A DNA stretch of 24,084 nucleotides from Escherichia phage TL-2011a: the sequence record JQ011316; one strand, given 5' to 3'. A program made the position numbers. How positions within the stretch are numbered: the first letter of the stretch is position 1; every line of letters starts with the position of its first letter. Shown one piece after another: positions 6,001 through 9,000 of this stretch.

Positions 6001-9000
6001 CATCCGTCACGTAATTTACGGGTGATTCGCTCAAGTAAAGATTCGGAAGGGCAGCCAGCAACAGGCCACCCTGCAATGGCATATTGCATGGTGTGCTCCT
6101 TATTTATACATAACGAAAAACGCCTCGAGTGAAGCGTTATNNGTATGCATATAAAAAGGCCCTCACACTGGAGGGCAAAGAAGATTTCCAATAATCAGAA
6201 CAAGTCGGCTCCTGTTTAGTTACGAGCGACATTGCTCCGTGTATTCACTCGTTGGAATGAATACACAGTGCTTATTCGTACTAATAAAATACCCAATTTT
6301 CTGTTTCTTGGTTGTGTCCAAAGTTATATTCAATATCTGGTATTGATGTATCAATATTCTTCATCCCATCAACAAGAGTTGATACAACAGCTAAATCTTG
6401 TTTGATTCTCATTAAATGGTATTTCTTCCGGCGCAATAAACTTTCAATGGCAAGTTTCTTCGTTGGGAATGCAAAAGATCTTTCTGCATTTTTTGCTACT
6501 TTCTTAATTGCATATCTATTTCTCCTTTGTTTCCATTCCTGTAACCACTGATTTGGTGCTGGTTTAAAATTAACAATCCAATGCGCAGGAACCAACCATG
6601 CATAATGCTCTGTCTGATGAAAAGCTATATATTGAAGTGCGAATATTTTTATCCCATCTTCTTCAACTGTCGCCTGGAATCTCCAGAAAACAGGCATTCC
6701 ATCATGTTCAGTTTCTGATTCAGGAAAAGGTACGCTCCATGATTTTGTCATATCTCACTTCAAATAAGTGGTTTGCTGCCTAATTTCATTTTCTGGCGAC
6801 CAACACAAGTCACCTCGCCGTCAGTTGTTTTGATTTCCGGTAGCCTGCCGCGTAAATGGCTACGTTTGGAAGACATACACCAGTTTCTGGTTGCTTATGT
6901 CCAAACTCATTCGCGTACACAATGGCCGCTCGCTCCAGATTGCGTCTGTATTCTTTCTGTTGCCAGATCACGTCCTGTGCCATGAACTTAATTGGCTTAG
7001 CGTCTTCTATGCGCTCAGGCGTTTCGTGAGTACCTTTAGCCTGAATCTGCGCTCTGCTTAGAGTAGGGCGGTGTAATACTTCTGAACTTATTGCTTCTTC
7101 GCGGGCCAGTACGCCGTTAGCTAATGCCTTTGCCTTTAAACGCTCACGACGACGAGAACGTGAATTGCCTTTGAACTGAGTTCTGCGTGTCATATAGACC
7201 TCCTGATGAACTTTGGTGGTGTGGTAGGTGGGAGACCCATTTCGACCTGTTTCGGCCTACTTCAATTCGGCAATAGTCCCGCAGGCCTCGCCGCTTTACG
7301 TGCGACATATTCCCGTCCATGAACCCTTCACCACACCCCAAAGTTCACTTTGGTTATTGCGCTTTGTCAGCGCCGTAGATTCATATTCGAATCGTTGTAT
7401 ATTCACCGCCCTGGTGAGTAATGCGTCCTGCTGACGATGATAATAATGAACCAATAGTTCGACATTATCAAGAACTATTGGTACGAATTTTGGTGATTTA
7501 TTAACTCTACGAAGTATGATTCTGATATATAAGGAAATTTATTTTTGAAAATGTGGCTGATGAAGGTTATGCGGCAGGGATCATAACTGCATGGTTTAGC
7601 GAGTTACATCAATAAATACAATTGGTTATGTTTTTTAGGTGGGCGAACGTGAGGCAAAGAAAACCCGGCGCTGAGGCCGGGCTAGATTTTAAAGTATTTA
7701 TCTTTTAGAGATGTAGATGTAAAACTTTTCGCCTTTGAAAATTTTTTGTCATCAGAAGGGCTTATGAACTCATCTTTTTTGTAGGGAACCGCTAATGCTG
7801 CATCACGTCTGCGAGGCAGCTTGCTTACTTCCTCGCGCTTTTTCATGATCAGTTATCCTTTAATAACCTATACAGTTTTGTAGGGGTACATCCTGAGGAT
7901 ATTGTTAAGTTCGTAGCACGCCTTTTCCGCCCATCATCGTATAAACGAAAACCAGTAGTAGACGAATTTTCTGCGTCAAAAACTATAGACAGTATAGCGT
8001 CCCCAGACTTTTTTTGCCATTCGCATGTGCCGTTAGTTGGTTTCGTCATCTGTAGACGCCAGTCAAGAACGCCATCACTTATAGCTGAGAGATCGTTTAG
8101 TACATCTAGTACGGATTGATATCTTTCATTTGGATCTACATGAATGCATTTGTTCACTATTGTTATTAATTTTTTATGTATATGGGGAGGATACTCTTTT
8201 AATGGATAGCAGCCATTAATTATCGACTCTCTGAGTTGTTCAATCGTGCTAAATGCAGATCTTTCTCTTTCAAAATTATCATGTCCAACACACATTCTAT
8301 ATATGGTTAATCCTGCCTGATATATGTCATATGTGAAATTATAATCATTTGTTGATAAAGAAAAATATTCCGGTGGCACATGAAAATGATATCCAAACTC
8401 AGGCGCAGCTCTCGATTCCTCATTGACTAACTGAGATAATCCAAAGTCAGATAGCATGGCCTCATTTCTGTTTGATATCATAATGTTATTAGGTTTTATA
8501 TCAAAATGCATAAGACCTTTTGAGTGTATATGATAAAGTCCACTTAAAAATTGAATGGAATACCGTATTATCTCCCTGCTTGTAAGATTATTTTTTTTCA
8601 TTAATTGGTTTAGCGAACCATTATGATAAAATGGCATGGCTATATAGATATTGCTCTCACATTGAGCAGCATACTGAACTTGCACAATATTTGGATGTGC
8701 ATGTTTATAGAGAAGCCTTGCTTCATTAAAGTAGTCGTCGTGGTTAGTGTTTTCTTTTTTTTCTATTTCTTTAATCACCAAGTCATGAGCTAGGTGTCTG
8801 TCATGAGCCAGATATACTTTTGAAAAACAACCCTGTTCTTCTAGATCACTAATCCATTCGAATTCTACATCAGCTCTTTTGTATGGAGTTAGCATCCCCT
8901 TACCTCCGCAGATAGTGCAGCCAAAACAGCTTCATTTGTTTCAGTTGTAAAACCAGAATTATCGATTCCATTTATATTGCGGTGTGACTTCAATATTTCT

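Follow-up and report, generated by a model that had tools for sequence, protein, structure and literature searches.

The early region of Escherichia phage TL-2011a (sequence record JQ011316) was analysed over a stretch of 24,084 nucleotides, hereafter called the window, with a focus on an open reading frame (ORF) on the minus strand at 6281..6751. This ORF, which starts with ATG and encodes 156 amino acids, was called correctly in the original prediction, and it proved to be a real, expressed gene of the family that includes gp45 of phage HK97 and L0079 of phage 933W. The product is a small, soluble, single-domain protein. We tentatively favour the reading that it is an immediate-early cytoplasmic accessory protein that serves the phage in infection or induction, and that it most likely binds nucleic acid. 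The contributions of the analysis are the identification of the gene across phages, its immediate-early placement, backed by public RNA-seq, and the recognition of a family-wide basic core in a confidently predicted fold without a solved relative.

The ORF had been described as an orphan of no recognised family, a description that does not hold, because the product aligns with PHROG 1636 over the full length (E = 6.2e-112; residues 1-156, profile positions 1-156) and the family is widespread; PHROG 1636 was also matched by all 40 of the relatives scanned. Amino-acid identity is 98.7% to HK97 gp45 and 99.4% to 933W L0079. Both are of equal length and lie directly after N and before a terminator, and nothing material separates them from the ORF: the three are the same gene. 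Homologues with 55-84% identity were found in Pectobacterium, Brenneria, Cronobacter, Rosenbergiella, and other Enterobacterales. Comparisons between genera gave pN values of 0.20-0.27 with saturated pS (0.78-0.92), and close pairs gave dN/dS ratios of 0.12-0.16. A profile search of 1.8 billion representative proteins recovered 87 relatives at E <= 0.001, mostly stand-alone proteins of 126-169 residues; two large proteins among the remote matches (P0059 and P0080) were considered as domain fusions and rejected as repeat artefacts. Members of the family occur not only in lambdoid prophages but also in phages that infect other Proteobacteria or Bacteroidota. About 11% of complete E. coli genomes carry the gene, the E. 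coli copies being 95-100% identical, and a plasmid search matched only 11 records, all non-mobilizable and phage-like; the family is confined to phages. Every database entry for the product, including those of 933W and HK97, is labelled hypothetical. In one O157:H7 clade, IS1203 is inserted in the 3′ end of the ORF without obvious consequence.

The predicted placement of the ORF, after N and before tandem terminators, was confirmed by the flanking elements, all of which lie on the minus strand. A promoter-like site (TTGATA-17-CATTAT, 7443..7471), identified by consensus match only, occupies the position expected for pL. It is followed by nutL (7359..7425; 933W annotation transferred with an offset of +2699) and by the 933W/HK97 allele of the antiterminator gene N (6810..7193), the cistron directly upstream of the ORF in the same transcript. 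The two genes are separated by a 58-nt spacer (6752..6809), which carries a weak Shine-Dalgarno-like GAAGUGAGA immediately 5′ of the ATG and folds into a hairpin that has no U-run and is not terminator-like; scanning of the spacer revealed no promoter-like and no terminator-like site. The 3′ untranslated sequence that runs from the stop codon to the first terminator (6177..6280) accompanies the ORF in most E. coli prophage loci. Two terminator-like hairpins follow, each of which folds as predicted and is trailed by a U-run. The first (6159..6176; GCCCUC-loop-GAGGGC then CUUUUUAUAU; folding free energy -10.7 kcal/mol) corresponds to a site annotated as a putative terminator in HK97, and the second (6119..6138) consists of AACGCUUC-loop-GAGGCGUU then UUUCGUUAU (folding free energy -9.9, z -3.2). 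The first gene past the terminators is cIII (5949..6089), and a strong Rfam match (88.5 bits) to the cIII 5′ thermoregulator RNA (RF01804) at 6044-6102 confirms that cIII starts just beyond them.

Some further features of this segment were noted. In 933W and phi24B, a 400-bp ea10/ssb block lies between cIII and L0079, and in 933W it adjoins L0079; the block is missing from the window (junction ~6148/6149), with the result that the two hairpins stand back to back. The record has ambiguous bases (nn) at 6141-6142, between the hairpins, where the collinear Stx1a phage PV728 reads TG. A weak sigma-70-like match (TACACA-17-TAAAAT) at 6262-6290 on the plus strand, antisense to the 3′ end of the ORF, is probably due to chance, since the region holds fewer promoter-like sites than shuffled controls. 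The possibility that the 3′ untranslated region is a known prophage small RNA was dropped; those RNAs map to the pR′ moron site, and the cIII thermoregulator was the only Rfam match here.

Public RNA-seq data from strain EDL933 showed that the transcript level of the ORF tracks that of N. Upon SOS induction, the ORF transcript increased about 45-fold (log2 5.5), although EDL933 probably holds two near-identical copies of the ORF, so that reads may be shared between them; the cI-operon genes were not induced. In uninduced cultures, the ORF reached 274 reads per kilobase per million (RPKM), a signal for which spontaneously induced cells may account. Read-through into ssb and kil increased only upon induction, as N antitermination predicts. 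The ORF behaves like N, as a gene transcribed from pL ahead of the terminators. Because it precedes the first leftward terminators, its product should rank among the first phage proteins made on infection or induction.

The product (18.6 kDa, isoelectric point 9.07, grand average of hydropathy -0.55) has no transmembrane segment; the highest Kyte-Doolittle mean over 19 residues is 0.71. An AlphaFold2 model, built from an alignment of 83 relatives, was obtained with a predicted local distance difference test score (pLDDT) of 96 and a predicted template modelling score of 0.83. The model comprises a three-stranded beta-meander (residues 19-55), two short helices, a short strand (83-86), a 33-residue helix (98-130), and an extended C-terminal tail that is placed with confidence. 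The segment aligned to residues 75-120 carries a net charge of +5 to +14 (mean +9.8) in 83 of 83 relatives, whereas the mean charge is -1.9 for the N-terminal part and -3.6 for the C-terminal part, and positions 24, 83, 87, and 109 are basic in 84-96% of the sequences. Since this basic surface has been kept in so diverged a family, it suggests that the protein binds a polyanion, of which DNA or RNA is the simplest candidate.

Searches against known families and structures gave no functional assignment. Pfam yielded only noise, and NCBIfam yielded no match. In PADLOC-DB 2.0, the sole match of the product was Cas1_II (E = 0.018, 12 bits), which is noise, and none of 40 relatives matched any defence model at E <= 0.001. 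Sequence-profile searches of the PDB returned nothing below E = 0.67, and comparison of the predicted fold with the PDB found no solved relative. The AP2 domain and the integrase arm-binding domain, which are of the three-stranded-sheet DNA-binding type, showed no profile or fold similarity to the product (hhalign negative), and neither did Ea10/phage Ssb (hhalign probability 0.18%). The remote-homology and structure-prediction searches suggested in the original prediction have supplied relatives and a confident model whose fold matches no solved structure, while removing the gene's status as an orphan.

On the reading we favour, the ORF would be the second cistron of a leftward immediate-early transcript that runs through pL, nutL, N, the ORF, two intrinsic terminators, and cIII. 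Its product would be made alongside N once repression is lifted or DNA enters the cell, and would not require N antitermination. In the protein, the N-terminal beta-sheet part is acidic, the centre, which includes the 33-residue helix, is strongly basic, and the C-terminal tail is acidic. Once a cell is infected or induced, the protein most likely binds a polyanion there, namely DNA or RNA of the phage or of the host. Such binding could help lytic development, either by protecting or handling phage nucleic acid or by disturbing a host nucleic-acid transaction. The protein would act alone, with no fixed partner gene, and the benefit would fall to the phage and not to the lysogen. The analysis establishes a real gene whose transcript pattern matches that of N, and a soluble product, restricted to phages, with a conserved charge pattern; nucleic-acid binding, as well as any role in counter-defence or host takeover, is what we infer.

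The base composition and surroundings of the ORF are those of an accessory module. It had been noted as AT-rich, and the measured values agree: GC content is 35.5% (26.8% at third codon positions), compared with 49.2% for N, 46.9% for cIII, and 46.4% for the whole window, which places it in the lowest 4% of 471-bp windows. The slot was likewise identified correctly, as the interval from N to ea10/cIII holds sieB, orf28, and ral in lambda. In 933W, the slot is occupied by this same gene. In the Stx2 prophage Sakai Sp5, an unrelated 83-residue hypothetical gene, ECs_1180 (L019 4721-4972, PHROG 2471; hhalign negative against the ORF product), lies between N and ea10, and for this reason the slot behaves as a variable site at which accessory genes are exchanged. 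Together with its 5′ spacer and the 3′ terminator region, the ORF travels in E. coli prophages as a module, which is preceded by at least three different N alleles and followed by ea10, cIII, or other genes. This mobile behaviour and the deviant composition support the proposed horizontal acquisition. Of the features of a moron in the Juhala/Hendrix sense, the ORF has a composition that departs from its neighbours (35.5% against 49.2% for N and 46.9% for cIII). A promoter and a terminator of its own, which would allow autonomous expression in the lysogen, were not found together: terminators lie downstream, no promoter-like site was found upstream, and expression follows pL and N.

The more divergent enterobacterial copies also lie directly after N-like genes. 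In Pectobacterium and Brenneria, no other gene separates the homologue from xis-int. For four remote relatives, including two from the gammaproteobacteria Marinobacterium and Pseudomaricurvus, the position is in an early-left operon between repressor and integrase. Recombination genes surround them, and each of these four loci has a C5 DNA methylase a few genes away. Beyond lambdoid prophages, homologues and fold relatives occur in free phages, and the stretches inspected there contain neither an integrase nor a repressor. In the non-lambdoid phages Bas81, NX263, and Klebsiella VLCpiS10a, the homologue adjoins, or is two genes from, a ParB-like gene (L015 4489-5298, L018 3489-4298, and L017 3936-4694, respectively); the ParB-like proteins of Bas81 and VLCpiS10a were scanned and both belong to PHROG 1033. 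ParB-like genes also lie within 3 kb in two IMG/VR loci (L113, L116), and in the non-lambdoid Pantoea phage LIET2 the homologue is located by a DNA methyltransferase gene. These ParB-like neighbours may reflect a functional link, albeit a weak one, to DNA-binding proteins. The idea of a tight pairing with PHROG 1033 was rejected, as the association is loose in further loci; the methyltransferase association is not tight either.

Several other explanations were weighed against a general nucleic-acid-binding accessory role. The one that fares best, though we consider it unlikely, is a protein-targeting counter-defence factor, functionally analogous to Ral or Ocr, which would be made first after DNA entry and would neutralise a host restriction or defence protein. 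The slot shared with lambda ral, immediate-early expression with N, the mosaic, AT-rich accessory character of the module, and the unrelated genes that other phages carry in the same slot are all consistent with this proposal, and the homologues in non-lambdoid phages are compatible with a benefit in the lytic phase. However, no similarity to Ral was detected (hhalign probability 0.14%), the family is absent from mobilizable plasmids, and the near-identical E. coli copies show no sign of arms-race diversification. In addition, the known DNA-mimic inhibitors, such as T7 Ocr, are acidic, whereas the conserved feature here is a basic surface.

A DNA-binding regulator of phage development or of host gene expression, with a role like that of CII or of the exo-xis region genes, is a somewhat less likely explanation; such a protein would adjust the choice between lysis and lysogeny, or host physiology. 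A conserved basic centre that includes a long helix, together with early expression, would suit this role, and early regulators of Shiga toxin (Stx) phages, such as CII, affect host genes (PMC3355084). Nevertheless, the family is found in phages with unrelated regulatory circuits, including non-lambdoid phages, no match to a helix-turn-helix or other known DNA-binding family was found in Pfam, and no conserved target site was evident nearby. A bolder extension of the favoured reading, which we regard as about as doubtful as a regulatory role, is that the gp45/L0079 family constitutes an unrecognised class of immediate-early effector, with a new fold and a basic, nucleic-acid-binding surface, that would shield incoming or induced phage DNA, or phage transcripts, against a host defence, or halt a nucleic-acid process of the host, by a mechanism that differs from those of known anti-restriction proteins.

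Superinfection exclusion, or another defence function exerted in the lysogen by analogy with SieB, had been raised in the original prediction and appears quite improbable. The slot corresponds to that of lambda sieB, the composition is moron-like, and the transcript is appreciable in uninduced EDL933 (RPKM 274). The proposal is made unlikely by the lack of a transmembrane segment or hydrophobic character, the lack of a promoter-like site of the ORF's own after N, an SOS-induced expression pattern that tracks N while the cI-operon genes do not rise, and the presence of homologues beyond lambdoid prophages; moreover, no similarity to SieB was detected (hhalign probability 0.58%), and PADLOC matched neither the product nor 40 relatives. 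Finally, a spurious or decaying, functionless ORF, as the uniformly hypothetical annotation and the apparently harmless IS1203 insertion might suggest, is effectively refuted by the conservation data, namely strong purifying selection, identities of 58-84% kept across enterobacterial genera, and 87 remote relatives, and is opposed as well by a model pLDDT of 96 and by transcription of the gene.

As a whole, the window represents the early region of a lambdoid prophage that is 933W-like and of the Stx type. Its cI gene lies at 9820-10527 on the minus strand, and a terminator-like hairpin at 7662-7683 matches 933W tM. The block between cI and pL (7682-9759, minus strand) contains an L0081-like ORF, the eukaryote-like Ser/Thr kinase gene stk (7849-8895), a 153-residue ORF (8889-9350) that carries the PHROGs label 'RuvC-like', and a gene for a DUF3024 protein (9418-9759). 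In this block, stk and the 153-residue ORF were both measured at about 35% GC, as AT-rich as the ORF under study. The 933W counterparts of the block genes are not SOS-induced in the EDL933 data, and they therefore behave as prophage-expressed genes. Beyond cIII on the minus strand are kil and then a recombination module, comprising genes for an AAA-family ATPase (4969-5649), an SSB-like protein (4385-4972, PHROG 743), and an anti-RecBCD protein (4065-4361). In 933W, exo/bet/gam take the place of this module (4065-5649), which illustrates the mosaicism around the ORF. The rightward early genes (11566-21222, plus strand) encode an O-like initiator, a 797-residue primase/DnaB-like helicase fusion, NinB, an HNH endonuclease, a DNA methyltransferase (16972-17517), two Ant-type anti-repressors, NinG, and a Q-like antiterminator; the best overall matches are Stx2a-converting phages.

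In both 933W-type Shiga-toxin phages and HK97, transcription of the ORF reaches the level of N. If a role in early host interference or counter-defence is true, it would bear on the spread of Stx phages and on the course of their induction; otherwise, the ORF is one unremarkable case among the many conserved hypothetical early genes that temperate phages carry. A confident predicted structure without a solved relative makes the protein a reasonable target for structural and functional work.

Among known systems, lambda Ral shares with the ORF the slot on the pL transcript between N and ea10/cIII and an accessory, non-essential character, but Ral has 66 residues, compared with 156, and no sequence relationship is detectable by hhalign. 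Lambda SieB occupies the same genome slot and shows no sequence similarity; the ORF product has no hydrophobic segment, and its expression appears to follow pL and N and not the prophage state. T7 Ocr appears to have only its timing in common, in that both are among the earliest proteins produced once DNA has entered; Ocr mimics DNA and is acidic, whereas the ORF product is basic and structurally unrelated to any PDB entry. The lambdoid exo-xis and early-left genes (ea22, orf60a, orf61, orf63, and ea8.5) are, like the ORF, small, non-essential genes of the pL operon that vary between phages, and some ORF homologues adjoin xis in that region. There is no homology between these genes and the ORF, whose family reaches far beyond the lambdoid phages. 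The ORF is a further member of this known class of variable early-left accessory genes, neither demonstrably a new kind of system nor an artefact.
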